Virus record (IMG/VR): IMGVR_UViG_3300037183_000135
Coordinates: 1-42,592 of that record
Origin: a virus
Taxonomy: Duplodnaviria > Caudoviricetes
Strand: one strand, 5' to 3'
Length of the DNA: 42,592 bases
The position numbers and the translations under genes are program-made. Under the pieces are notes generated by a model. It was not told where the DNA came from, did no database searches, and saw only the letters and a list, made by a program, of their open reading frames with translations. Positions within the stretch are counted from its first letter, which is position 1. Every line of letters begins with the position of its first letter. This document shows positions 1,091 through 36,849 of this stretch, piece after piece.

Positions 1091-2191
1091 TTACGCCGTC
1101 GAGACCTGAGCACGAAGTTGCGTCGAACTAAAGTCCCAGAGGCCGTCCACCTCGTGGAACAGCTGGGACAGAAGGTCGTAATCCCGGATGCCAGACTTCT
1201 CGAAGACCTTGTACATGGTCAGAACCTCGCCGTCGACGGGACGCTGCGTGATGTAGAAGCGAGTCTTGAGCTGGGAGAGCTCGTAGAGCATGGGAAGAAC
1301 GGGCTGCCCCCACTTCGGGTCGAGCATACGGAGGAGGGCGTCCGCGCCCATGGCGATAGGGGTCCCGGGGAAGCGCCGGGCCTTATCGAGGTATAGCGAG
1401 TCGCCACGCGTGAACAAGCGATCGTGGCCGCGCAGCATGCGAGCACGCTTCAGCAAGTCCTGGAGGGTTAGGGGCGCCTTATGGGGGCCGTCCGCGGTCA
1501 CGTGGAAGACCACCGGCTTGAGGGCCTTCTTCGACACCTCGGAGGCCACGCCGAGGTGTCCGGGATGCGGAGGATTGTAGGCACCCGGCATGAGGACAAT
1601 ATCCTTCGGGATCTCGGACGTCCGCTCGCCGTTCTTCGCAAAAAACGGGTGGGCGTAGAAGCGTTCCAGGGCGAGAGAGGTCGAGTCCTCCACGCCGCGG
1701 GTCGAGACCGTCGCCCGCCAGTCCAGGTTGACAGCCTGAAAGAGAAGGGAGAGGCCGACGGAGTCGCAGATCACGCCGTCGCTGAGGCGATAGTCCTCCC
1801 CGACGCCCTTGACCAAAACCTGGTTCATGGAGACGACCTGCTCGTCGGTGATAAGGCACGCATGGACCCGGTGTTCACCACGATGCTCGCGCTCGCTGGC
1901 GACGGAGGCCGTGAGACCCAGTCCGACGGGCTTCTTCCCGCCGAACGAGTAGGCGCGCTGATAGGCGACGCAGGCGAGATCGATCGCCGCCTCGGGGGAA
2001 CAATAGCTCTCCGGGACGAAGCCGAGGGTCTTGTCGGTCTCGGCCTGCCGGTAGGGGAAGGAGGCGCCGGACAGGTAGGCCGAGCTGCCGGGGACCTCCC
2101 ACAGCTTCTGCTGCAGCCCAGCCCCTCCGCCGGTGCAGATAATATGGATGCTGACTCCGGCGGCCTTGAGTTCGTCTGCCCAGGGGATCAT
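1091..2191 (-). CDS. CinA/PncC-like domain fused to a HxGH nucleotidyltransferase (NadD/NMNAT-like)
   Basis: N-terminal CTGGG...PGSSAYL resembles CinA C-terminal domains. C-terminal PGAYNPPHPGH, MGAD and SSTQLR are cytidylyltransferase-like superfamily motifs. Lies next to NAMPT. Confidence 0.75.
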   Translation of the reverse strand: MIPWADELKAAGVSIHIICTGGGAGLQQKLWEVPGSSAYLSGASFPYRQAETDKTLGFVPESYCSPEAAIDLACVAYQRAYSFGGKKPVGLGLTASVASEREHRGEHRVHACLITDEQVVSMNQVLVKGVGEDYRLSDGVICDSVGLSLLFQAVNLDWRATVSTRGVEDSTSLALERFYAHPFFAKNGERTSEIPKDIVLMPGAYNPPHPGHLGVASEVSKKALKPVVFHVTADGPHKAPLTLQDLLKRARMLRGHDRLFTRGDSLYLDKARRFPGTPIAMGADALLRMLDPKWGQPVLPMLYELSQLKTRFYITQRPVDGEVLTMYKVFEKSGIRDYDLLSQLFHEVDGLWDFSSTQLRAQVSTA

Positions 2192-2202
2192 TCTCTTACT
2201 CT

Positions 2203-2424
2203 CTAGTGTGTCTGAGGGGTGGGCTCCAGGACAGCTCGGGTCGTGTTTGCCTCGTGCTTGGAGCCCTCAAAGTCAACGTGGACGATATTGCAGTCGTGGT
2301 TCCGACACCAGACCTGGAAGCCGAGCGGGGTCCATCCAGCCTCGATATTCTGGGGAAGACTCTCCTTCAGGCAGGCCCCACAGTGCATGAAGGCCTGGAT
2401 CTCCTTGGTGTTCGGAATGCTCAC
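2203..2424 (-). CDS. Small Cys/His-rich hypothetical protein
   Basis: HCGAC...WCRNH motifs; fills the gap in the NAD operon. Confidence 0.65.
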   Translation of the reverse strand: MSIPNTKEIQAFMHCGACLKESLPQNIEAGWTPLGFQVWCRNHDCNIVHVDFEGSKHEANTTRAVLEPTPQTH

Positions 2425-2439
2425 GGGGGCGGATAGAGA

Positions 2440-2466
2440 GCGCGGCCCGGGACCTACGGGCCGCGC
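2440..2466 (-). terminator. GC-rich hairpin downstream of NAMPT
   Basis: Perfect 10-bp stem GCGCGGCCCG/CGGGCCGCGC with a 7-nt loop; weak pyrimidine tail on the minus strand. Confidence 0.55.
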
Positions 2467-2472
2467 CGGCCG

Positions 2473-3903
2473 TCACGCAGCGAGCAGGAACTCCGCGCCG
2501 GCGAGGGCCCGGACCTCGCCGAGGTTCTGATGGCGGAGAGTACGCCCCGTGTCCCAGACGTCCTCCATGATGTTCGTGACGAGCTCTCCCGGAAGCGTCC
2601 GGTAGATCCCGTTCTCAAGGACGAGGGAGTGTCGGCCGCGGAAGCTGGCCTTCCCCGGATCCGTCTTCGGATCCTTGAAGATCTCGCAGACAACACCGTC
2701 GATGACGGCGTCCCAGCACTTGTAGGCGAACTTGTTCGTGTCGCGGTTGAGGCCCTTCTGGAGAAGCTCGCCGCCCATGCCGAACGCGATGTTCGAAGCG
2801 GAGTAGCCGGCGGCCATCATAGCGCCGAGGATCTCGTCGATCGCCTCGAGGCTGACGCCGTCGCCCTGGATGAGGCGAACCCAGCCCGGAAGGACCTTGT
2901 AGCCCTTCGAGTTCTTGGTCATCCCGACCTTGCGCTCGAGGATCTCCAGGCTCTTCAGGATGATGTCCAGGGGGACGCCGGAGTCAGGACGGACGACGAC
3001 GGTCGACCCGCTCGCCTCGATCTCCGCGGCCAGCTCGCCGCCCCACATGTTCTCGACCACGTCGAAGTAGTCGTAAGTGTCGGAGACGCACGCCCAGACG
3101 GCGCCCTTCCTCCCGAACGCCTTGAACATATGGCGGTAGAAGTCGCCCTGACGAGCGCGTCCCCACTTACAGGCGGTCGAGTGCTCGGCGGCAGGGATGC
3201 TGCAGCCGGCCTGGGTCGGGCTCACAGTGTTGGCGTCCGGGCCGTAGAAATTGTCCGCATAGAGGACGCCCATGTACGTGTCCGTCCCCATGAAGTTCAC
3301 GAGATGGGACATGCCGCCGATACCGGCCTGCTCACGGCAGGTGACGGCACGGCCGCCGAAGTCGTGGAGCTTGTACGGAAGCTCGGCCAGCGGGTTGTCC
3401 GAGGTCAGCTCGAGGTACTTGAAAATGGTCTTCTTCGCCTCGTAGCTCTTGGTGGCCACCGAGATCGGATACCACTGGCGGACGACCTGAGTCTCGACGT
3501 AACCGGCGGCCCAAGAGAGCTCGGGGTCCGTCGAGCGGACGTCCAGAAGAATGTTGTTGGTCGGAATGATCGAGCCCTCCTTGGGAGCCCGAATCTTGAC
3601 CGGAAGGTACCCATTGTGGCGCTCGAGGATCTTGAGCCAGCCCTCGCGGTTGAAGGGCGTCCCGTAGGCAGGCAGCTTCTCCGAGGCGTAGTTAATCTGG
3701 TCGAGGGTGACCGGATCCGAGAGCTCCTCATTCAGGAAGCGCTGGAGGCCGAAGAACACGGTCTTGTCGAACTTCCCGCCACGCGAGGAGAGATAGAAGC
3801 CGGACTCGGTCGTGTTGGGAGGGTCCTGGAGCCAGTGGCTGAACTTGTAGCCGTCGGTGTCGAGGATGTTGCCTACGAGGCGTGACAGGTTGAGGTTTCT
3901 CAT
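2473..3903 (-). CDS. nadV: Nicotinamide phosphoribosyltransferase (NAMPT/NadV)
   Basis: Motifs DTDGYKFSH, KLHDFGGR, SIPAAEHS, VSDTYD, VVRPDSG, IQGDGV, AFGMGGELLQ, NRDT, KDPKTDPGK. Confidence 0.93.
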   Translation of the reverse strand: MRNLNLSRLVGNILDTDGYKFSHWLQDPPNTTESGFYLSSRGGKFDKTVFFGLQRFLNEELSDPVTLDQINYASEKLPAYGTPFNREGWLKILERHNGYLPVKIRAPKEGSIIPTNNILLDVRSTDPELSWAAGYVETQVVRQWYPISVATKSYEAKKTIFKYLELTSDNPLAELPYKLHDFGGRAVTCREQAGIGGMSHLVNFMGTDTYMGVLYADNFYGPDANTVSPTQAGCSIPAAEHSTACKWGRARQGDFYRHMFKAFGRKGAVWACVSDTYDYFDVVENMWGGELAAEIEASGSTVVVRPDSGVPLDIILKSLEILERKVGMTKNSKGYKVLPGWVRLIQGDGVSLEAIDEILGAMMAAGYSASNIAFGMGGELLQKGLNRDTNKFAYKCWDAVIDGVVCEIFKDPKTDPGKASFRGRHSLVLENGIYRTLPGELVTNIMEDVWDTGRTLRHQNLGEVRALAGAEFLLAA

Positions 3904-3904
3904 A

Positions 3905-4612
3905 TCAAGCTCCTTCTTTCAGCCCGAACTTCAAATCAAGAACGATCCCGGATTTCTCCAGTTCCCGGTACGAGGACCGGTCAAACCTATATAGGGCAGA
4001 GCGCGGAGTGGTGAGGGCCTCTCTTCCCGTTTTCTTCAGAAACCCGAGGCCGAGCATTCTCCGCTGGAAGTTCCTCTTGTCGAGAGGAGAGTCGATGAGA
4101 CACTCGTAAAGACCCTGTAGTTGAGTCAGGGTGAACTCCCCTGGAAGGAGACCAAAACCTACAGGAGAGTATCTGACCTTGGCTTTCAGGCGGGAGACGG
4201 CCGTCGCCACTATGGAGGCGTGATCAAAAGCCAGATCAGGAAGATCCGAAACGGGAAACCAGCGTGCCTCGGCAGCATCAGAGGATGCCTTCGGAGAGTG
4301 ATCAAGGGTCGGAGTGAGAGCGAAATACGCGATCGATATTACCCTTCCGCGCGGGTCACGCTTCGGGGCGCCGTACGTGTACAGTTGTTCCAAGTGGGAA
4401 ACAACGATCCCAGTTTCCTCCTCCAACTCTCTCTTGGCAGCGTCATCGAGAGACTCGTTCATGTTAACAAAGCCGCCAGGGAGAGCCCAGAAGTCCTTGA
4501 ACGGGGAGCCTTTCCTCCGGATGAGGAGGATCTCGAGCCCGGAATCTGACTGGACGCCGAAAACGACGGCATCGACGGTAACGGAGGGTCGTGGATATTT
4601 ATAGGTCGGCAT
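3905..4612 (-). CDS. nrtR: NrtR-like Nudix hydrolase plus winged-HTH (ADP-ribose-responsive regulator family)
   Basis: Nudix box GGFVNMNESLDDAAKRELEEETG, RDPRGR, LAFDH; C-terminal FTLTQLQ...DKRNF wHTH; directly upstream of nadV. Confidence 0.85.
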   Translation of the reverse strand: MPTYKYPRPSVTVDAVVFGVQSDSGLEILLIRRKGSPFKDFWALPGGFVNMNESLDDAAKRELEEETGIVVSHLEQLYTYGAPKRDPRGRVISIAYFALTPTLDHSPKASSDAAEARWFPVSDLPDLAFDHASIVATAVSRLKAKVRYSPVGFGLLPGEFTLTQLQGLYECLIDSPLDKRNFQRRMLGLGFLKKTGREALTTPRSALYRFDRSSYRELEKSGIVLDLKFGLKEGA

Positions 4613-4642
4613 TATGTGTTATAGTACACTATTGACTGTGTA

Positions 4643-5026
4643 ATGCAGAACATCATAAGAAATCTAGAGAACGCAAAGGCACGGACGAAGCCGCAGCATG
4701 ACGTGCGCACGGACCAGATCCTGGTGACGATCTATGCGGTCGAACATATAAAGACGGGGGACATTGTCTATGTCGGCGCCTCGACCGATCCGGAAGCAAG
4801 ATGGCGGAGACCCGCCCAAACTGTGAAGTTAGATAAGATAATTCATCTAGAAGAAACCATTCTTCTCTACCAGGTCGAGCGGGAGACCTTCTGGATAGAA
4901 GAAATGTTGAAAAGAGGATATAAGCTGAGCAACAAGTCGGCACCCCAGAGAATCCAAGTGAGCTCATATGTGCACGAGCTGCCACAACCGCATCGGAATC
5001 GGCCACCTGGAAAGCTGGAAAGATAG
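4643..5026 (+). CDS. GIY-YIG family endonuclease (short)
   Basis: TIYAV...VYVGAS...RW...ERETFWI...N motif order; visibly lower GC than the flanks. Confidence 0.7.
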   Translation: MQNIIRNLENAKARTKPQHDVRTDQILVTIYAVEHIKTGDIVYVGASTDPEARWRRPAQTVKLDKIIHLEETILLYQVERETFWIEEMLKRGYKLSNKSAPQRIQVSSYVHELPQPHRNRPPGKLER

Positions 5027-5061
5027 CGTAGCTACAGAACCGGGCACCGTAAGGTGCCGAG

Positions 5062-5286
5062 ATGGCGTCGACGGTGACAAAGGTGCGGTGGTGGCTCGAC
5101 TCGGTCCGGGGCCTGAAAGCCCACATAGACCTCTACAAGCACATGTACCGCCTCGCCCAGAACGTGCCGGTGAACCAGAGGACGAGGGCGCTCGCGGACC
5201 AGCTCCGGAGGCAGGAGGGAATGATCGGCTTCTGCCTCCTCCACGTCATACTCGTTCACCCGGTCGGAAGCGGAAGGATGGATTAA
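5062..5286 (+). CDS. Hypothetical protein
   Basis: 74 aa, ends 3 nt before the next start. Confidence 0.5.
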   Translation: MASTVTKVRWWLDSVRGLKAHIDLYKHMYRLAQNVPVNQRTRALADQLRRQEGMIGFCLLHVILVHPVGSGRMD

Positions 5287-5289
5287 CTC

Positions 5290-5649
5290 ATGGAATACGA
5301 GGCGTTCCTGACCAAGGTCATAGACGACGGCATCGCGGCAGCCACGAAGAGCTACGCGTCGCGCCCGGACAAGCTCAAGGGGGCGGTGGCCGGATTCGAG
5401 GCCTGCAGGGGAAAGAGCCCCGAGCAACTAAAGTCCGAGCTCGAGACGGCAGGAAAGGCCACAGAGATGGCGCGGATCTGCAGGGCGAACAACTACTGGG
5501 AAGTCCGCTGCTTCGAGGCGGAGGTCGAATGGGTTTGCAACGTCGTGAGCGCCGCGATGGCCAGTCAGAACGCGCCGACGATCGTCAGCCCGACCGCGCG
5601 AGGGGTCATGAAGGCAGCCGACGTCCTGGGCGTCAGGGGCGCATCGTGA
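5290..5649 (+). CDS. Hypothetical protein
   Basis: 119 aa with typical codon usage; stop overlaps the coaD start (GTGA). Confidence 0.75.
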   Translation: MEYEAFLTKVIDDGIAAATKSYASRPDKLKGAVAGFEACRGKSPEQLKSELETAGKATEMARICRANNYWEVRCFEAEVEWVCNVVSAAMASQNAPTIVSPTARGVMKAADVLGVRGAS

Positions 5650-6173
5650 GGGCGGCGAAGGCGATCTACGCCGGCTCCTACGACCCGTTCACGTACGGGC
5701 ACAAGGCGGTGGCGGAGGACACCCTGAAGATCTTCGGGAGGGTCGTCATAGCCATCGGGACAAACGGGTCGAAGGCTCCGCTCTTCAAGACGGAGAGGAA
5801 AATAGAGATCATCAAGGGATACTGGCCGGGCGAGACGTTCGGGGTGGACGACAGAATCCAGGTAACAACGTTCTCAGGGCTCCTCACCCAGTTCTGCCGC
5901 GAGTGGACCGAGAACGCGGTCCTCATACGAGGCCTACGGGCCGTGTCGGACTTCGAGTCCGAGATGGTCATAGCGGCCGCGAACCGCAGGCTGAGCGACC
6001 AGGTCTCGACCGTGTTCATCCCCACGCAGCCGGAGGTCGCCTACATCTCCTCTAGCGTCGTGAAGGAGATCGCCCGGAACACGACCCAGATAGCGGATCT
6101 CCTCCCCTACGTCACTCGCGACGTAGCGGAGGAGATGATGTCTCAGATCGGGCTCGGCTTTCCGAGGAAGTAG
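5646..6173 (+). CDS. coaD: Phosphopantetheine adenylyltransferase
   Basis: AIYAGSYDPFTYGH, LIRGLRAVSDFESE, ISSSVVKEIA. True start is GTG 5646 inside ORF 4968..6173. Confidence 0.9.
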   Translation: MRAAKAIYAGSYDPFTYGHKAVAEDTLKIFGRVVIAIGTNGSKAPLFKTERKIEIIKGYWPGETFGVDDRIQVTTFSGLLTQFCREWTENAVLIRGLRAVSDFESEMVIAAANRRLSDQVSTVFIPTQPEVAYISSSVVKEIARNTTQIADLLPYVTRDVAEEMMSQIGLGFPRK

Positions 6174-11846: not shown

Positions 11847-12452
11847 ATGATAGTGCTAATATGGTTTCTGAACTTCGGGATCTCGTGGCTCAACGCGTGG
11901 GGCTGCGGCAAGACCTGGAACGAGACAAAGCACTCGGGAGGAGTTCCGCACTTCATGAACTGGATGGGCGCGACGATGTCCGCCTGCGGGTTCAGCTGGT
12001 GCTACATGATCGTACTCTTGGCCGTCGGGTCGGCGATACCGGCCGGGACAGGGCCGGACGCGCACCTCATCCCGCGGTCCGTCGTCGACGTCATGGCGTC
12101 TCTGGAGTACTTGGCACTCGTCGGGCCAATGCTCGGGTCGGGGATAGCCATCACGGTCCACGCGTGGGGCGTCGCGTACAGGCGAAGGAGCTTTGGGTCC
12201 GGGGCCGTGGCCGCTTACGACACCTGGGCGCAGATCTACAACATCCAGGGAGCGATGGACTATGTGCCGGAGGCGACTTCGAAGGTCGGGGACTTCTTCG
12301 AGTCGGACGACTCCGACGACGGCAAATGGCTGATAGTCATCGCCCTGGTGGCGGCAGTCCTCGTTGGCGGGCTGCTCACGACCAGGGCGATAATCCGGTC
12401 GACGGCGAAGTCGACCGCGATGAGCAGGTCGTCCTTCACTCCGGCGGCCTAG
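11847..12452 (+). CDS. Multi-pass membrane protein
   Basis: Start MIVLIWF with GAGGA SD; about 4-5 hydrophobic segments. Confidence 0.75.
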   Translation: MIVLIWFLNFGISWLNAWGCGKTWNETKHSGGVPHFMNWMGATMSACGFSWCYMIVLLAVGSAIPAGTGPDAHLIPRSVVDVMASLEYLALVGPMLGSGIAITVHAWGVAYRRRSFGSGAVAAYDTWAQIYNIQGAMDYVPEATSKVGDFFESDDSDDGKWLIVIALVAAVLVGGLLTTRAIIRSTAKSTAMSRSSFTPAA

Positions 12453-12453
12453 C

Positions 12454-12570
12454 TCAGGCCTTCTTCGCTGCGGGCTTCGCTGCCGCTTTGGCTGCGGGCT
12501 TCGCGGCCGCCTTCTTGGCCGGGGTCTTCTTCACTGCTGCTTTTTTCGCGGTCTTCTTTGCGGTTGACAT
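12454..12570 (-). CDS. 38-aa histone H1-like Lys/Ala/Pro protein
   Basis: Below the ORF-track cutoff. MSTAKKTAKKAAVKKTPAKKAAAKPAAKAAAKPAAKKA; GGAGG SD upstream. Confidence 0.8.
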   Translation of the reverse strand: MSTAKKTAKKAAVKKTPAKKAAAKPAAKAAAKPAAKKA

Positions 12571-12619
12571 ATTGGCTTGTAGCCTCCTGTGGATGACGTT
12601 ACCGTGGAACGCAATAAGC

Positions 12620-12835
12620 GAGAGCGGGAGGTCGCGACGTTATGCTTCGGTTTGATGAGAGCTCGCGGCTCAGTCCTCGGTTCTGAGGGCTGTGGGCTGA
12701 CACTTTGCGGAATGCTGAATGCTAGGATGTCAGTGCCGGTTTGCGGATTGTTGATCCATCTGTAGATGGGTAAACGTCGAGGGTCGCAGGCACCCTGGAC
12801 GCCCGAAGCCCAAGCGTCGTCTCCTCCCGCCCCGC
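12620..12835 (-). ncRNA. Candidate structured ncRNA
   Basis: Three nested closing stems (12624-31/12823-30, 12635-39/12815-19, 12644-50/12803-09) enclose four hairpins. No credible ORF in the gap. Strand is inferred from the neighbouring genes. Confidence 0.65.
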
Positions 12836-12845
12836 AGTCCTCACG

Positions 12846-13352
12846 CTACGCCGCGTGGAGCGGCGTCTCGTGGTTTTTCTTCTCGACGAGGTCGTTCAGG
12901 GCGTCGAAAGACGCCTGGACCTCGTCCACCCTGTCGGACCTGGAGGCCTCGGGGAGGTCGCAGGTCATCGGGATGAGCTTGATGTGGCCAACGCCGTGGA
13001 CGTAGACCGTCTCCTCCTCGTTCGTGCTCTGGGCCGAACGGACGACGAGGCCCTTCAGCCAAGCGAGCTCGCCCTTATACTCCTGGAGCAGCTTCACGGC
13101 GTAGGTGAGGGTCATCGTCTTGCCGCCGAACTCGATCTTCGTGACCGCGTTCGTGACGGCCAGGCGGGCCTCGATGGCGATGAGCTCGAGGCGCGCGGAC
13201 TCGATCCTCTTCACCGTCTCGGCAAAGTTGTACGCGGGCTTCTCCGCGCTCTTGAAGGTGACGGCCGCGGCAGCCCGAGTCTTATACTCGGCAAGCTTTC
13301 CCTTGAGCCTGGCCGCGTTGCGCAGGGCCTGGGAGATGGTCAAGTCAGACAT
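12846..13352 (-). CDS. All-helical protein resembling the DIP1984/DUF6847 family
   Basis: Pattern M.LTISQAL...L...., I..TN..T.I...G..MTL..A...., and L...ID/VE..N near the C-terminus, recognised from memory. Confidence 0.6.
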   Translation of the reverse strand: MSDLTISQALRNAARLKGKLAEYKTRAAAAVTFKSAEKPAYNFAETVKRIESARLELIAIEARLAVTNAVTKIEFGGKTMTLTYAVKLLQEYKGELAWLKGLVVRSAQSTNEEETVYVHGVGHIKLIPMTCDLPEASRSDRVDEVQASFDALNDLVEKKNHETPLHAA

Positions 13353-13410
13353 GACGAAATCCTACAACCGGAGACGAAGGTCGAGGACCCCGTAGCGTAC
13401 GGGACAAACG

Positions 13411-15293
13411 ATGACGAAAGCGATCGTTCCGGACGTCCTTCGGTCGAAGCCACTCGAGAGCGAGGAAGTGAAGACCGGGCAATGGTTCTGGGTCAAGGAC
13501 GGGAAGGACCGATGGTTCGGCTGCGTAGTGACGGTCGGGTCGAACTACTTCGAGATCGAGTCCCCGAAGGGAGGAACCTGTCGAATCCACGCGGACGAGT
13601 TCGACGCAGAGTGCGAGCGGGAGAACGACCCGGACTCGGTCATCGACCGTAACATCGCCGAGGCCGGGGGACAGGTGGAGTCCCTAATGGGGGAGGTGCG
13701 GGCCCTCACAGCAAGGCTGGCCGTAACGGGAGGACATGAGCTCGGGACGGGGGAGGAATGCCAGGCGCTGGCGGTGGCGACCGAAGGAAGGAGCTACAGC
13801 GAGTACAGCAAGTCGCTCGTGAAGGCGAAGAAGGAGGACCTTCCGGCGCTCTTCGAGAAGATCGAGAAGGCGAACAAGTCCATGGCGTCCTGGATGTCGG
13901 CCAAGGTCATTCCCCTGAAGGCCGAGGCCAAGGGCATGAAAGGCGTCATAGGGCAGATAGAGGACCGAGTCTTCAACGTCGAGCTCTACGCCGGGCTGGT
14001 CGAGCAGGTCGTCCTGTGCAAGGACGGGGAGCCCGCCCCGACCGGGGAGAAGATAAGACTCCTCCAGAGGAGGCACTACATGGACGAGGAGTGCCTCGCC
14101 AACTACGAGGTAGGCGGGATGGAGATGAAGGACATCAAGGCCTTCGACCGGTGGATCTGCAAGAAGCAAAACCAGGACCGCCTGCTCCCCTTCCCCGCTG
14201 CGCCGTGGCCTTCCAGGTGAGGAGAAACGAGAAGTGGCGGGAGGGGTGGAGCATAGCCGACTTCCTCCAGATCTTCCACCTGAAGGAGGCGGACAAGACG
14301 ACGTTCCTGTATATGCGGAACGGCGATCGCGTCTACCGGCTGGAGACGCAGATCGAGTTCGGCGAGCAGCTCTTCCCGGACATCCGGCAGCTCCGCCCGA
14401 ACGACGCCGTGTGGGCGAAGGTCTGGTCCAACGGGTCGGTGCAGAGCATCATATCCGAGGGCGAATACCTCGAGAAGAAGAAGCAATCCGAGGCGGAGGA
14501 GGCGGAGCGCAAGCGCGAGCACGCGAGGGCGAAGCCCGAGGACAGGTGGAAGTTCCGGTCATGGGGAGGACGGGCCGACCACGAGGAGTACAAGCCGTTC
14601 AACCAGACGAACGTCTTCTACGACGACATCTCGGCGGAACTGCAGGCCAAGCTGAAGAAGCATAACCGGATAGCGCTCGTGCTCCAGGGCATCCTCGACC
14701 GGTCGCCGGTGTTCCACCCGCACCCCCCGTGGCAGATCTGGACCGAGGCGGGATTCGCCCTGGCCCTCGAGCTCGTCCACGACGACTCGTTCGCCCTCCC
14801 CTCCGGGCCGCCGCCGGACTTCGAGGCCTACCGGAAGAGGCTCAACCTCCAGCTCCGCCCGGGCTGCGTCACGATCGGGCAGCAGGACTTCTGGGGGCGG
14901 CACGAGGCCGAGAAGGAGAACCGGAGGCGGGAGAGCGACCACCGGACGCGCGGGCGCAACTACGAGGTCCACCACTACAGCCCGTACGGGAACCCGGGTC
15001 CCGGGGACCTGGCCCGGCCGGTCCACGTGAACAAGGTCGGGAAGTGCACATACGCGTGGTCCCGGGAGAGACAAGTGGAGAAAAAATGGGGGCAGAGGAT
15101 CGGGGAGCCGATCAAGGTCCGCTTCGACGTCCCGTCCAGAAAGCTTCTTTGCGCGGACGCCTACGAGCGAGGAGACTTCCACCAATTCTTCGACGACCCA
15201 CGCACGAGGACGGACTACCTGAAGTGGGCGCCCTTCCTGCTCGAGGCCGAGGAGTACAAGGCCGGCAACAGGAAGGTCCGGGACCCGGGCTAG
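13411..15293 (+). CDS. Large hypothetical phage protein (~627 aa) split by a -1 frameshift near 14193-14196
   Basis: ORF 13411..14220 reads sensibly to DRLLPFP. The overlapping frame continues RCAVAFQVRR... to 15293. One extra C in TTCCCC restores a single frame. Confidence 0.75.
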
Positions 15294-25329: not shown

Positions 25330-28107
25330 TTAAACATTTTGAGGAACGGAAGCGATTCTCCCGATCCTCACGAAGAACTTCTGCTCAGGCGCGGACAGAG
25401 CGCGGCCAACACGGACTTTGCAGGCGGCCACGTAGGAGCGCTCGCTGGGGAAGTCTGAGGAGGGGCCTGTGTTCATCGCTGCCTGATAGAGGGCCGCGGG
25501 CATGGCCGCGGACCTGACCGTGTCATGAATCCATGAAAAAACTATAAGGTCACGGGGGGTCAGGCCCGTCACCCTGTTCGAAAGGATCGAGCGCCTGGTG
25601 GCGGCGTAGAAGCGGATCAGCGCGGCGTTGCCGGAGAACCTCTTGGCGACGGCGGCGACGGAGGCCGGGCCGCGGGAGGACGTGGCGAGCAGCGTCTCGT
25701 TCATGTCCGAGTCCGAGAGGGACGGGGTGGCGGTCGGCACGTCCTCGGGCTTCGGGGCGAGCTTGTCGCCGAGGCCCTTGACGATGCCCTCGAGCAGGAG
25801 CTCCTGCGCCTTGTCGACGAGGCCCTGCATCTTGTCCGAGCCCGATGGGGCGGCAGGGGCCGGGTCGCCGATCGGCGGGACGTCGTCCTCGGCGCCGTCG
25901 TCCTTCTTCTTGCCGTCGTCGTCAGGACCCTGTCCGCCGGGGGCGTCAGCGGGCTTGCCGAAGGCGGGCTCGTCGCCGCCCCGGGACTGGGACTGATCCT
26001 GTTCTTCGGCTACGCGGGTCGAGGCCGCGAGGGGGATGCCGGTCGGGAGCGGGTCCATCGAGCGGCGGAGCATCACGGCCTCGCCGCGGGTCAGGGCGTC
26101 GGAGAACGCGACGCTGGCGGCCATGTCGTCGTTGAGGAAGTTCCTGCGCACCGCGCCCTTGAAGGCGGGGTTGCGGACCCAGGAGGCCTCGATGAAGGTG
26201 TTGCTGTTCGGGACGGAGACGTGCCCGATGAGCTCGCCGAGGCGATGTTCTACGCCCTCTTCGTCCGCGAACTTGCTCCCCTTGCCGTCGTACATGATGC
26301 ACGGGCAGAGCTGGGTGTCGTCGGACGCCACGTTGCCGCAGCGGTTGCAGCAGGTGAACAGGGATATGCAGCCCATCGAGAGCGCGGAGATATTCCCCGC
26401 CATAATGTCGCGGACCAGGATCTGGTGCTTTCTGTCCGTGGCGACGAGGATGTCGACGTAGCAGGTATTGCCGAGGTCTCGGGCAATGGCGTCGACAATG
26501 AAGCCCTTCGACAGCTCCGGGATCTGGATGTGCTCCAGGTAGTTAGGGGCGCCGATGAAGGTCCGGTAGGTAGACAGAAGCAGCGAACGCTCCCAGCAGT
26601 CCGAATTATGTACCGAGCGCCTGTTTGCCACATAGCTATGGTCAATCTCGGTCTCAAAGTTGAAGACGGTCCCGTCATACCACTTCTTCTCGATTGTCTT
26701 GATCAGGTTCGCAATGCCGTCGTCACGGGTCCTGAATTCCAGAAAACGGTTTTTCCGTCCGGATTTGGAATTACGCCAGGCGTCTTCCATGAAGCCGCCG
26801 ATCACAACCTTCTCGGCCTCGATAGCGTTGATAGTCGTCACATTGGCTACACACGACTTTGTCGGGTCATTGACGATGATCCACCCGCCGTTCCCGTCGC
26901 AAATCCGCTTACGGCCTGAACGAACTGTTCGGTGGGTGCTGGACACGACCCCGAGCCTGGCCAGCAAGACGCCCATCTGGGAGTGTAGGTCAACAGACGA
27001 AGTCGTGACTGTCAGCCACCCGCCGACCGTCTTCTTAACGGATCCATCTCCCTCAAGCCAACCTTGCACGACGAGCTTTTGGAGCTCTATCGGCCAAGTC
27101 AGGACCTCCGGGTCGAGTTTCTTCGTTCTCGCGTGCTCGCCGGCATACCTTTTGAAGAATTGGACCGCCTCAATGGCGTAGTTCGTGTAGAGCTTGATCG
27201 CGTTCTCAGAGATCGTGTGCTGACGCACCTTGATCTCAGCCCCGAACTCCGAGTCCATAAGGCGGACTATGTCGGCCGCCAGAGTGTCAACCTCGTCCTT
27301 GCATAGAGAAAACTCGACGCCGACCGGGATGTTATGCGTCTCGTCCGGGAACAAATCACGGACGTTCTTTCTAACACGGTGGAGCTTCTGCCGATGAAGG
27401 TGTCCCTCCGCCAGGTAGTAGCCGAGGAGCTTGGCCTTACCGGGGGTCACCCCGGACGGGTTCGACTCGCCGCGAAGCTTCGGATATAGGACATGGTCGT
27501 TCTCGCGGACGAGACCTGCGGACAGCCAGCCAAACTCGCCGGTGTCGACGGTCTTGGCGCCGGACTTCCTTGGCCGCGATACCCAGATCGGGTGTTCGCC
27601 CGTCACGATGAGAGGACGATGGTCTCCGCGAGACCCAATGCTGTAGATCCAGCCCCTATGAGGGTGGACGAAGGTCTTCACGACCTTCCGAACGCTCCCC
27701 GTGTGGGATATGACCTCATCACCGACAATGACGGACTCGATCGGTTTCTCGGTCCCGTCCGCCATCAAGATCATAGTCCCGGCTGGACAACAGTTGTTGT
27801 TGATAATCTCCTGACAGGCCGGCTTCACTCGGAAGTCCGGGTAGCGGACGTCGATCTGGACGCCGCGCTCCATGCGCTTGCCGGTGACGGCGCCCTTCGG
27901 GGCGTAGGTGTCGACCGAGGCGACGATCGTCGCGTGCGAGAGCAGGAACTGCTTCGGGTCGCACTTGCGAAGGACGTCCTTGGCGATTCGCCCGACGTAG
28001 TCCTTCGAGACCGCGCCCTCGTGCTGCTGGCGCAGCTCGTCCATCCACTCGTCGAACTGGATGGCAGTCTTCGAGATGATAGCGTTGGCAGTGCGTCGGA
28101 ATGACAT
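25330..28107 (-). CDS. Prohead (maturation) protease with intein
   Basis: Spliced product reads INNNSDCWER...TFIGAPNYLEH...GFIVDA...LSMGC...CNRCG...FIEASWVRNPAF; position in the head operon fits. Confidence 0.75.
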   Translation of the reverse strand: MSFRRTANAIISKTAIQFDEWMDELRQQHEGAVSKDYVGRIAKDVLRKCDPKQFLLSHATIVASVDTYAPKGAVTGKRMERGVQIDVRYPDFRVKPACQEIINNNCCPAGTMILMADGTEKPIESVIVGDEVISHTGSVRKVVKTFVHPHRGWIYSIGSRGDHRPLIVTGEHPIWVSRPRKSGAKTVDTGEFGWLSAGLVRENDHVLYPKLRGESNPSGVTPGKAKLLGYYLAEGHLHRQKLHRVRKNVRDLFPDETHNIPVGVEFSLCKDEVDTLAADIVRLMDSEFGAEIKVRQHTISENAIKLYTNYAIEAVQFFKRYAGEHARTKKLDPEVLTWPIELQKLVVQGWLEGDGSVKKTVGGWLTVTTSSVDLHSQMGVLLARLGVVSSTHRTVRSGRKRICDGNGGWIIVNDPTKSCVANVTTINAIEAEKVVIGGFMEDAWRNSKSGRKNRFLEFRTRDDGIANLIKTIEKKWYDGTVFNFETEIDHSYVANRRSVHNSDCWERSLLLSTYRTFIGAPNYLEHIQIPELSKGFIVDAIARDLGNTCYVDILVATDRKHQILVRDIMAGNISALSMGCISLFTCCNRCGNVASDDTQLCPCIMYDGKGSKFADEEGVEHRLGELIGHVSVPNSNTFIEASWVRNPAFKGAVRRNFLNDDMAASVAFSDALTRGEAVMLRRSMDPLPTGIPLAASTRVAEEQDQSQSRGGDEPAFGKPADAPGGQGPDDDGKKKDDGAEDDVPPIGDPAPAAPSGSDKMQGLVDKAQELLLEGIVKGLGDKLAPKPEDVPTATPSLSDSDMNETLLATSSRGPASVAAVAKRFSGNAALIRFYAATRRSILSNRVTGLTPRDLIVFSWIHDTVRSAAMPAALYQAAMNTGPSSDFPSERSYVAACKVRVGRALSAPEQKFFVRIGRIASVPQNV
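26605..27792 (-). mobile_element. Intein (396 aa) with LAGLIDADG homing endonuclease, in the protease
   Basis: Block A CCPAGTMILMADG, block B VTGEHP, LLGYYLAEG and GWLEGDG, terminal VHN followed by Ser. Confidence 0.92.
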
Positions 28108-33894: not shown

Positions 33895-36849
33895 CTATTC
33901 ACTGTCGCCCCCGAAACGGTCGCCATTCTTGCCGGCGACATTCAGGCCGAGGTTCTTGTAGACCTTGTCCTTCACGTCCGTGTCCTCGGCCAGGGAGTCG
34001 CCGATGGAGGTAAGGGCCGCCCGGATGAGCTCGTTCATGTTCGCGTCCTTGAGCGTGAACGCGTCCTTCTGCAGCTGGTCGTGGGCGTCGTCCACGTCGA
34101 TGTTAAGAAGGTCGTAGATGTACGCGATGGGCATCGAGCCCTTCTGGTACAGGTTGTACATGAAGTCCTGGAGCTCCGTGTTGTCGCGGAGGGCCAGACG
34201 TGTGAACTGGAGCTTCGGGTAGAGGAGGTTCCGGTTCCCGTCCTCGTCGACCTCAAAGAACTGCTTCTTCTCGGCGACCGGGGCGAACAGCTGCTCCTCG
34301 ACGAACTGGGCCATCGTCTCCCTGTAGAGGAGGTACATTGTGTTCATAACGTCGAGGTGGATGCGCTCCCCGGAGTAGGTGCTCTCGCCCGTGAGCATAG
34401 ACTCCGTGATGCGGAGGCCGATGAACAGGAGCTTGTTCGTGATCTCGTACTCCGTCGACAGGTCGAGAAGGCGGTCACGGGATCCGATCTCGTCCCAGTG
34501 CAGCTCGAAGTTGGCGACGACGGTGAAGTCCGGGTCCTGGAGGGCCTGGTCTATCTGGTCCCGGACGCCCTCAACGTCGGTCTCGGACATCTTGTCGCCC
34601 CAGACAACGCGCTTCGGCGTCATCGCGCGGGAGGCGATGGAGGTCTGGGCCTGGCGAAGCTTGTCCTGGAACAGGAGCGTCCGGAGGCAGCGCTCGAGGA
34701 TGGACGTGCCGCGGTCGTCGTAGGCGGCCTTCTTGTGGGCCAGGTGGTAGCAGAACGACGAGCAGTAGTAGTCCTGGTACGGGCTCGTGTTGAGGGGGAT
34801 AGGCTGGCCGTTGAGGAGCCGGTCCTTGATCATGTCCGGGATGTCGGCGGCGATCTTGGCCGCCTCCGGGTCGGACGTGTTCTGGGCACGGAGGACGACG
34901 AGCCGGTCCTTCTCGCTCGGAATGAGCTCCATCTTGGTCTTGTTTGTGTACTGGAAGACCTCCAGCTTGACCTGCTCCGGGGGCAGGATGGTGAGCTTCT
35001 CCCACCCCCTATAGTTCTTCGCCACGAAGTCGAGGATGGCCTTATGCTGCTCCTGTGGAGGCTTCGGCTCAAACTTCTTGATACGTCTTCGTGTGGACCG
35101 GCCGACGTAGTCGACCTCACCGATCTCCTCCTCGGTGATGTCCATCGTCAGCTCCTCGGGGACCTCCGGGAGCATGTCCTGGTCCTCGGCGAAAATGAAG
35201 ACGTTACCTTGAAGCCAGTACTCGTGCGTCGCGTCATACAGGACCTGGAACATCCGGACACGCCGGCACATCTCCTCATAGAAGTGGAGGATCTGCTTGT
35301 TACGGCGGCGGTCCTTGCCCTTCGGGAGGGACAGGCGGATCTTGGACATCGGGACGTCCGTATTATGGGTAGCCAACCCATAGGCAATATAGCTCTTCCG
35401 ATCCCCAGAACCGTGAACCTCTATGTTATGAACCAAACCGTCATACTGGACGGTCGAAACCCTCTCAATGCGCCTAAGGACGCTGGATCCGACACGGACG
35501 CTATACTCACGGGTCGAACGGGCAGAGTATTTCCCCTTCACGAAGTTAGCATAATGGGAGAACTCTACATGGAAACGATAAGGTATTATGATCCGGTAGG
35601 TAGTCCCGCGTGGGGTAAAGCCACTCTTCCTGGTTTTTGGCTCAACAGCATGAATGACCGGAGAGTAGCCAACCTTCGATGCAAGAGTGTGGATCTGATG
35701 GGCCATCCTCTCGGAGGTCGTCGTGGCAACGTAACCGTTCTTCGTAAGACAGCCATCACCATTCCAGTAAGCGCCGAGAAATTCCAGAATATCCTCTCTG
35801 GGAGATTCAATAAGATCCAGGCTTAGCTTCTTCTCGCGAGAACCACTACCAACGTGATGGTAACAAAACTCGGCAAAATCTCTCTTATAACATTTGACAT
35901 CACATGAGCGTGAGCCGCTCCGAACACGCTTTCGGGCCTCGTGAGAATACTCCGAGAAGAACATTTCGGATATTTCGTCGGCTATGGTCTCGAACTCGTT
36001 CTCGTTCAGAGTGAAGACTACCCTGTCAAGATGGCCGTACGAGGTCCTCGACAACGAACCTTCAGCCGCATAGTACCCGAGCAGACGAAGCTGGTTCCTT
36101 GTGAAAACAGATTCGGAAGAAACGATCGACGGAGAACATACATAATCCCCCTCCTTCAAATCTTTAGCAAACACAAACGATGGCTTGCCGAAATCGACGC
36201 CTGCACATTTTTTCTGCCTGCAAAGGGACTTCGACCCACGTTTGCAGGCGCCCAAACCGTAGATGGGGAACTTGCAGTTAACCTGCGAAGCTCGATAAAT
36301 CAAAAAAGGATGGTTCTCAGTGCAGTCGATGTCTTCGTCGACCCCGCGAACCTTCAGTCGGGTGATGGGACCACGAACCATATCCTCGAAGGTCCGAAGA
36401 ACCCTCGTTGTCTCCCCGAGACCGTTAACGACCTCGTCTCCGACGACCAAAGACTCTATAGGCCTGACAGTCCCGTCCCGCATAAGGACCGGGGCGCCGG
36501 GAGGAAAACAATGGAAGTCGATGGCCGCGCCGACTATGGGGTGCGTCGTGTACCAGAACCGGAAGAGCTCGCGCTTCTCGCGCTCAGACTGCGGGAGCTC
36601 GAGAAAGTCGGTCGAGAGCTGGGGGCTGTAGAACTGCGAGTGGGCGTCGACGACGTTCGTCGGGGAGCTCCCATACCCGGAGAAGCCACCCATGGAGCTG
36701 CCGCCATAGTTGGCGACGCGGATGGACTGTCGTGACTCGCGGCGAGCCTGACGTTCAAGCTTCGTCAGCTGCTGGCGGGTTAGGCTCTGGTCCGTGTCCT
36801 GACGACGAACGCCAAAACGGGTCTTGGGAGGGGTCTTCTTAGTTGCCAT
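33895..36849 (-). CDS. Portal protein with intein
   Basis: Spliced RELFRFWYTTHPIVGAAIDFH/TDVPMSKI; HEYWLQGNVF; GTSILERC; lies downstream of terminase. Confidence 0.8.
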   Translation of the reverse strand: MATKKTPPKTRFGVRRQDTDQSLTRQQLTKLERQARRESRQSIRVANYGGSSMGGFSGYGSSPTNVVDAHSQFYSPQLSTDFLELPQSEREKRELFRFWYTTHPIVGAAIDFHCFPPGAPVLMRDGTVRPIESLVVGDEVVNGLGETTRVLRTFEDMVRGPITRLKVRGVDEDIDCTENHPFLIYRASQVNCKFPIYGLGACKRGSKSLCRQKKCAGVDFGKPSFVFAKDLKEGDYVCSPSIVSSESVFTRNQLRLLGYYAAEGSLSRTSYGHLDRVVFTLNENEFETIADEISEMFFSEYSHEARKRVRSGSRSCDVKCYKRDFAEFCYHHVGSGSREKKLSLDLIESPREDILEFLGAYWNGDGCLTKNGYVATTTSERMAHQIHTLASKVGYSPVIHAVEPKTRKSGFTPRGTTYRIIIPYRFHVEFSHYANFVKGKYSARSTREYSVRVGSSVLRRIERVSTVQYDGLVHNIEVHGSGDRKSYIAYGLATHNTDVPMSKIRLSLPKGKDRRRNKQILHFYEEMCRRVRMFQVLYDATHEYWLQGNVFIFAEDQDMLPEVPEELTMDITEEEIGEVDYVGRSTRRRIKKFEPKPPQEQHKAILDFVAKNYRGWEKLTILPPEQVKLEVFQYTNKTKMELIPSEKDRLVVLRAQNTSDPEAAKIAADIPDMIKDRLLNGQPIPLNTSPYQDYYCSSFCYHLAHKKAAYDDRGTSILERCLRTLLFQDKLRQAQTSIASRAMTPKRVVWGDKMSETDVEGVRDQIDQALQDPDFTVVANFELHWDEIGSRDRLLDLSTEYEITNKLLFIGLRITESMLTGESTYSGERIHLDVMNTMYLLYRETMAQFVEEQLFAPVAEKKQFFEVDEDGNRNLLYPKLQFTRLALRDNTELQDFMYNLYQKGSMPIAYIYDLLNIDVDDAHDQLQKDAFTLKDANMNELIRAALTSIGDSLAEDTDVKDKVYKNLGLNVAGKNGDRFGGDSE
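35362..36510 (-). mobile_element. Intein (383 aa) with LAGLIDADG homing endonuclease, in the portal
   Basis: CFPPGAPVLMRDG, CTENHPF, LLGYYAAEG and YWNGDG, terminal THN followed by Thr; lower GC. Confidence 0.92.

Follow-up and report, generated by a model that had tools for sequence, protein, structure and literature searches.

What lies in the gap behind a small gene for a helical protein in a fragment of a large phage, and do the gene and the gap belong together? The DNA analyzed here, referred to as the window, is a stretch of 42,592 nucleotides that covers about 9% of a phage genome. It encodes terminase, portal, major head protein, and head protease, along with NAD-salvage genes and homing endonucleases. 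On its minus strand, a gene for a 168-aa protein (12846-13352) is separated by 275 nt from a 38-aa Lys/Ala-rich ORF that resembles histone H1 (12454-12570). A sequence-only reading of this locus had proposed that the two proteins and a structured RNA in the gap form a ribonucleoprotein system, and had called the gap the longest non-coding stretch. The gap is long, but a simple codon-trained caller places it third of 53, after gaps of 461 and 324 nt. Both of the longer gaps overlap ORFs that the caller discarded.

The gap contains an element that is real, structured, and uncatalogued. It is RNA-like, about 218 nt long (12618-12835), closed by stems, and assigned to the minus strand from the gene. 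The 5' arms of three nested closing stems (12803-12835) are exact complements of the 3' arms (12618-12650). The stem pairs listed by the earlier reading (12624-12631 with 12823-12830, 12635-12639 with 12815-12819, and 12644-12650 with 12803-12809) all proved to be exact reverse complements, and its four inner hairpins (12671-12692, 12697-12733, 12756-12769, and 12775-12801) are present. Two of these hairpins, 12775-12801 and 12756-12769, form a variable part of the multiloop (12756-12801), in which the number and sequence of hairpins differ by locus. Another, 12671-12692, sits within the repeat array and is lost from the alignments beyond the nearest relatives. The minus-strand fold of 12618-12838 has a z-score of -4.75, and none of 200 shuffles is equally stable, so that the comparison with shuffled controls favors a genuine structure. 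The entire gap scores -3.22 on the minus strand and -3.51 on the plus strand. The RNA had not been recognized as a named family, and a search of Rfam at gathering and E-value levels found nothing over the element, whether in the window itself or in the 25 groups of related loci. Neither ARAGORN nor Rfam matched the element as a tRNA, tmRNA, 6S, SRP, or RNase P RNA.

The element carries an array of heptamers. On the minus strand, the dinucleotide AG stands at six successive positions spaced exactly 7 nt apart, with the A at 12698, 12691, 12684, 12677, 12670, and 12663. This six-step run was reached by none of 20,000 dinucleotide shuffles, and with any dinucleotide and any lag from 4 to 10 allowed, 3 of 3,000 shuffles reached a run of six. 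It is unique within the 42.6-kb window on both strands. The repeated unit is UNAGC. A first block of three units, the third degenerate (12705-12725, minus), is followed by a second block of seven, six with a perfect AG and the seventh degenerate (12652-12700, minus). Counted with its degenerate members, the array consists of ten units in register, split 3+7. A conserved twin-hexamer element with a YGRYRY-like sequence (12728-12738, minus) precedes it. The strict form of this pattern occurs in 14 of the 25 groups, and several of its columns are invariant or nearly so in a 23-row alignment. Directly after the last heptamer, the innermost closing stem opens with CC. The sequence-only reading had noticed a 7-nt periodicity from TGC (GCA on the minus strand) at 12706, 12713, 12720, 12734, and 12742. 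The trinucleotide is found at these positions, and also at 12643. The periodicity holds, but the proposed unit does not. The GCA run keeps exact register for only three steps, which 45 of 20,000 shuffles match, and the TGC positions cover the first block and its edge alone, missing the main array.

The layout is shared by related loci. Five scans yielded 54 loci besides that of the window; 23 were dropped as duplicates, truncated loci, or partial matches, leaving 32 distinct loci in 25 sequence groups, ten of which form one clade. Searches by tblastn found nothing in phages (query P0001) or plasmids (query P0027), and a single-protein locus search of viral contigs and an alignment search of GTDB genomes were likewise without result. 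In all 25 groups, a stem-closed split array stands behind the gene. The conservation of structure downstream of homologs is supported, as is the idea that an RNA-like element with a 7-nt periodic tract travels with the gene. Over the 25 groups, AG pairs at lags of 7, 14, and 21 number 168, 128, and 108, versus about 44 ± 6 in shuffles. The 7-nt period reaches p <= 0.01 individually in 20 of them, and the consensus unit is U-N-A-G-C. A chain model finds 8 to 12 units in every group and exactly ten in 14, of which 12 are split 3+7; the counts are similar under three gap penalties. In three loci (L036, L038, and L046), hairpin inserts break the array and the units resume afterwards. This is what would be expected if the array were read as a single strand from which loops can be extruded. 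The element begins about 10-30 nt past the stop codon in nearly all loci. One locus departs from this, its element being preceded by some 130 additional bases after the stop codon (L038:3502-3640).

The fold is also conserved, with z-scores below -2 in 21 of the 25 groups. The end arms vary in sequence, yet once composition effects were removed, 14 of 25 groups had cognate arms that paired better than swapped ones (z < -2), as against 4% of swapped pairs. Without this correction, cognate arms came first in only nine groups. When 20 loci were aligned plainly with MAFFT, the 5' halves failed to align, and for this reason RNAalifold returned no consensus pair. A count of pairs in the innermost stem gives 97 of 115 versus 55.6 after permutation, but it is circular since the partners were picked by folding. 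The position behind the gene, the 3+7 layout, and the arm-specific pairing are kept across proteins down to about 30% identity. The element is very probably a conserved RNA partner of the gene.

The same comparison removes the histone-like protein from the proposed system. It had been counted as a third component, and was ruled out as a core part because only 5 of the 32 loci have it, every one of them a member of the nearest clade. The 38-aa ORF, which has no match in Pfam, NCBIfam, or PADLOC, is a local neighbor outside the conserved unit. A 19-nt element between the RNA and this ORF (12592-12610, minus) is kept in the close relatives L001, L014, and L015 and partly in L016. It may serve the small ORF as a promoter or regulatory element.

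On which strand is the element read, and is it expressed? It is most likely read on the minus strand, judging by the gene and by the end arms, which favor the sense strand in 21 of 25 groups. Whole-fold energy was discarded as a guide to the strand, being indecisive: the sense strand is lower in 10 of 25 groups, or 12 when the array is kept unpaired. In two loci (L214 and L264), the element is followed by terminator-like hairpins with U tails, which fit the strand of the gene. Assembled contigs from a soil metatranscriptome (X20) give a weak hint of expression. The whole of a 196-nt contig from a close relative, at a mean word depth of 290, aligns to 12626-12819, differing at 11 letters and by 4 gaps. 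Ten of 12 listed changes fall at unpaired positions, and the other two, by reading, keep minus-strand pairing. A second contig of 189 nt also covers the element, and one of 217 nt covers the small ORF. The 168-aa gene is represented by a short unrelated piece, and the flanks by nothing. These data come from one study and from a relative, as contigs only, and the 196-nt and 189-nt contigs give neither ends nor strand. Two other RNA runs (X21 and X22) had nothing over the element, which does not prove that it is absent there; the comparison covered 4 of 20 runs. We infer a discrete transcript on the strand of the gene.

The element could instead be a 3' UTR. The protein would then act on the mRNA that encodes it, much as TRAP does on a leader, by binding it and setting its stability or the read-through into the next gene. 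The short distance from the stop codon suits such a role, as do U-rich tails or terminators after the element in several loci and the failure to find a sigma-70-type promoter in 12300-13500. We nevertheless consider it improbable. X20 assembles the element alone with the coding region uncovered, which is a weak argument, and different loci have different genes downstream.

How specific is the array to this gene? By itself it is not, because UNAGC arrays are common without the gene, and reverse pattern searches led us to reject the array as a marker. A six-unit pattern occurs in about 900 viral stretches, and of the 125 that were returned, 2 follow the gene. With the split pattern, 5 of 15 matches in viral contigs lie behind it, all five being loci that were already known. 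In genomes, the split pattern has about 650 matches, and 2 of the 120 returned are behind the gene. Both are new loci (L264 and L214), found with a pattern that fixes just 2+5 units and located behind DUF6847-like genes. L264 is exactly 3+7, and L214 is 3+7 plus two weak extra units. The dispersed arrays have the identical unit and 7-nt period. Unlike the array described here, they have from 5 to 33 units under like scoring, with ten in 11 of 148, and are tied to no fixed gene. Since the heptamer is shared with dispersed repeats, specificity resides in the count of about ten, its division into two blocks, the stems that close the element, and the position behind one gene family. UNAGC-type arrays with a 7-base period (L057-L316) abound in viral contigs as well as in genomes of many phyla, often as mirror pairs.

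This abundance suggests two further explanations. The first is that a DNA-level dispersed repeat settled behind the gene, the stems being a terminator-like by-product; such arrays are common, and folding leaves the strand undecided. It is the least probable account, in view of the fixed position, the 3+7 layout, and the arm-specific pairing kept at low protein identity, and of the separate RNA contig in X20. The second is that the RNA acts as a decoy, soaking up a host protein that normally binds the dispersed UNAGC arrays, in which case the DUF6847-like protein would bind elsewhere or only share the operon. The very large number of viral and genomic arrays, nearly all without the gene, and the mostly phage-borne nature of the clade speak in its favor. 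Against it, the unit count is near ten only behind the DUF6847-like gene, and none of 23 same-strand ORFs upstream of genome arrays matches a four-helix-bundle family, which is a narrow test. A decoy is also harder to reconcile with the canonical bacterial members described below, which keep the 7-nt period with other letters. This fits a product of the gene itself better than a decoy, which we regard as unlikely.

The 168-aa protein is a fold-level relative of DUF6847 that scores below the curated cut-offs: 22.1 bits against PF20935 (cut-off 27) and 27.5 against NF038048 (cut-off 70). Its AlphaFold2 model is helical, with a pLDDT of 97.5 and long amphipathic helices. The only PDB fold match at E <= 0.001 is 3kdq, with a TM-score of 0.69-0.81 at 16% identity. 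The protein thus belongs to a phage clade of distant DUF6847/DIP1984 relatives. The clade has 502 representatives at E <= 0.001 and 134 at 1e-30, and 117 of 143 relatives match PF20935 at E <= 0.01. Five positions (R11, K17, R26, K93, and R138) are basic in more than 90% of the 143 aligned relatives. A tree made with FastTree served solely for choosing sub-alignments.

The protein had been expected to oligomerize, and modeling agrees with this. It is predicted to self-associate through a two-fold interface: a four-copy model has a self-association score of 0.65 versus 0.00 for the best of three controls, with contacts that agree between runs at >=83% and a pLDDT of >=86. The mark used for this score is reached by 20 of 30 solved pairs and by 1 of 23 single chains. 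A resemblance to 3kdq may have helped the protein to pass it. The confident contacts are those of a two-fold dimer, and the model says nothing on ten subunits.

A small gene strictly linked to a repeated RNA, and a protein with long amphipathic helices, would also suit a toxin-antitoxin or superinfection-exclusion pair, in which the protein is harmful unless held by the RNA. Type III toxin-antitoxin systems combine an RNase toxin of the ToxN/CptN/TenpN kind with upstream pseudoknot repeats of 34-57 nt. Here, the RNA is downstream of the gene and its units are of 7 nt, which is unlike type III antitoxin repeats. PADLOC had no match for four family members, Pfam gave none to a type III system, and no nuclease or pore-former fold is among the matches at E <= 0.001. 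Type III membership was accordingly rejected. The antitoxin-like role once suggested for the RNA is not borne out either, given the PADLOC result and 3kdq as the only fold match. There is little likelihood that the pair is a toxin with its antidote.

Do canonical members of the family have a comparable element? About 1,300 bacterial genomes were searched, giving 24 usable canonical loci, of which 18 strong and non-redundant ones were tested. The two branches are related, as the phage-clade profile recovers 23 of 24 proteins of this small set at E <= 0.001. The 18 canonical loci have no AG array. They have a weaker 7-nt period with other letters: GYA recurs at lags of 7, 14, and 21 with z-scores of 4.9, 6.6, and 3.1, in a test of 11 patterns at 10 lags on related sequences. 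In an anchored A profile of 14 canonical loci, 7 is the strongest of 11 periods. The canonical tract ends in ACC, like that of the window. Relatives of DIP1984/DUF6847 (PF20935, NF038048, and 3kdq) thus share with the window the fold of the protein and a structured element with a 7-nt period behind the gene. They differ from the phage clade, which has the sharp UNAGC array. A T-loop motif is found in 8 of 18 canonical elements versus none of 25 phage-clade elements. A G-rich strand is at the 3' end in 15 of 18 canonical elements (L319-L349) and at the 5' end in the phage clade (12823-12845 in the window). A circular permutation could possibly relate the two kinds of element.

In two bacterial genomes, DUF6847 genes occur in tandem about 2 kb apart (L329/L343 and L330/L342), each followed by its own related element. 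The cultured Bacillus phage phiAGATE has a DUF6847 gene above the Pfam cut-off, gp045 (L056:2465-3436), which lies among tRNAs and is followed by an unannotated gap of 450 nt. No AG array was seen on reading this gap.

The neighborhood of the gene provides a hint of function. Genes for tRNA, RNase P RNA, RNA ligase, RtcB, or Ro60 lie within 3 kb in 14 of the 25 groups, as a raw count. Genes for tRNAs are within this distance in 8 of 25 groups. The clade of ten groups has an RNase P RNA gene behind the element in eight and an RNA ligase gene in six. RtcB (L048), Ro60 (L018, as the next gene), and RLIG1 (L017) occur once each. The window and its nearest clade (L001, L014, L015, and L016) have no tRNA or repair gene nearby.

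The RNase P RNA genes are an observation in their own right. They are full bacterial class A genes (254-308 bits) in viral contigs, mostly directly behind the heptamer element and with an RNA ligase gene next. The copies are located at L034:3814-4153, L031:3804-4294, L033:3812-4141, L036:3917-4278, L037:3807-4145, L038:3983-4346, L044:1852-2334, and L032:4225-4568, and two of them are about 130 nt longer than usual. A literature search for phage-encoded RNase P RNA gave nothing.

Taken together, the gene and the element likely form an undescribed RNA-protein particle, whose layout is kept in related phages and in which copies of the protein bind the motifs one by one. Our preferred explanation, held with moderate confidence, is that an oligomer of the DUF6847-like protein binds the ten UNAGC units, one per subunit, in a particle that serves the handling of damaged RNA by the phage. 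The element would likely be a stable RNA. Its units would probably be bound one per subunit by an oligomer of dimers, possibly five. The array would be held single-stranded on the protein, and the closing stems and variable hairpins would point away from it, where a partner could grasp them or where they could act as triggers sensitive to nucleases. The role in handling damaged RNA would follow from the location beside tRNA, RNase P, and RNA-ligase genes. The parts of this explanation differ in strength. Binding of the units by the protein is rather probable. A ten-fold stoichiometry is plausible but tentative, and a role in RNA repair is a still more tentative suggestion. Extended to the whole family, the idea would make DUF6847 proteins RNA binders that count. 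Ten helical subunits, arranged as a ring or a short filament, would wrap ten 7-nt units of the RNA adjacent to their own gene, in huge phages and bacteria alike, and scaffold or trigger tRNA or RNA repair, with the unit letters co-varying with the protein clade. This generalization is speculative, and we would call it doubtful.

Are there known systems of this kind? TRAP is a small ring of beta-sheet subunits that recognizes repeats with a period of about 5 nt in an mRNA leader. Part of the published account describes 11 subunits that bind 11 NAG repeats, one site each, with the RNA wrapped around the protein (PMC4027176). The system proposed for the window resembles TRAP, as far as that account goes, in combining an oligomer, one site per subunit, and a counted run of NAG units. 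In contrast to TRAP, a helical protein would bind about ten units at a period of 7, on an RNA that follows the gene and is folded into a closed multiloop. A TRAP-type leader does not describe the data: lag 5 is depleted and lag 7 enriched over the 25 groups, and the protein model is helical.

Sponge RNAs of the CsrB/RsmZ type have many GGA sites in hairpin loops for an oligomeric protein. The likeness is that one RNA offers many sites to an oligomer. The sites of the present element are UNAGC units in a periodic tract, in contrast to the GGA hairpin loops, and the element has no Rfam match.

Y RNA and YrlA (RF02553), the partners of Ro60 (Rsr), are a further parallel. In the excerpted text of PMC4201824, they are gene-adjacent RNAs closed by a long stem and containing a large internal loop, found in RNA-repair neighborhoods, and the element of the window shares the gene-adjacent location, the closing stem with its large internal loop, and, through related loci, the RNA-repair context. 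However, it measures about 220-300 nt rather than 80-130 nt, has no Rfam match and no T-loop, and its partner is not Ro60, so that it falls outside the Y RNA/YrlA family. A periodic array is not part of the Y RNA description in that excerpt. Ro60 is adjacent in only one of the loci scanned, L018, and is absent from the window, which covers about 9% of the genome.

The literature on DIP1984, DUF6847, PF20935, NF038048, and 3kdq yielded no RNA partner. The portion of PMC7824862 that deals with RNA repair and NAD makes no mention of the element. The supplements of PMC10690425 that were searched had no match, and the element could be listed elsewhere in that paper without a name. A structural-genomics family of unknown function (3kdq, 2009) gains a specific, testable ligand candidate, namely a periodic RNA tract of counted units for which a stoichiometry is predicted. 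If the preferred explanation is correct, a helical oligomer that reads 7-nt units would be a new mode of RNA binding beside those of TRAP, Hfq, and Csr, and could possibly be used as a programmable scaffold. That the pair recurs next to genes for tRNAs, RNase P RNA, and RNA ligases in phages hints at an unrecognized part of the phage answer to RNA damage by the host. The shared heptamer may also help explain dispersed 7-base genome arrays, which have long been unexplained.

Other features of the window deserve mention. Next to the 168-aa gene, two large plus-strand ORFs of 269 aa and about 360 aa (13411-15293) overlap at 14205-14220 and have no family match; they are either neighbors or one frameshifted gene. 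An NAD-salvage cluster (1091-6173) encodes a nicotinamide phosphoribosyltransferase, an NrtR-like NUDIX regulator, and two cytidylyltransferase-like proteins. The head protease and portal genes (25330-28107 and 33895-36849) contain LAGLIDADG domains, accompanied in the first by a Hint domain, and these insertions are likely inteins.
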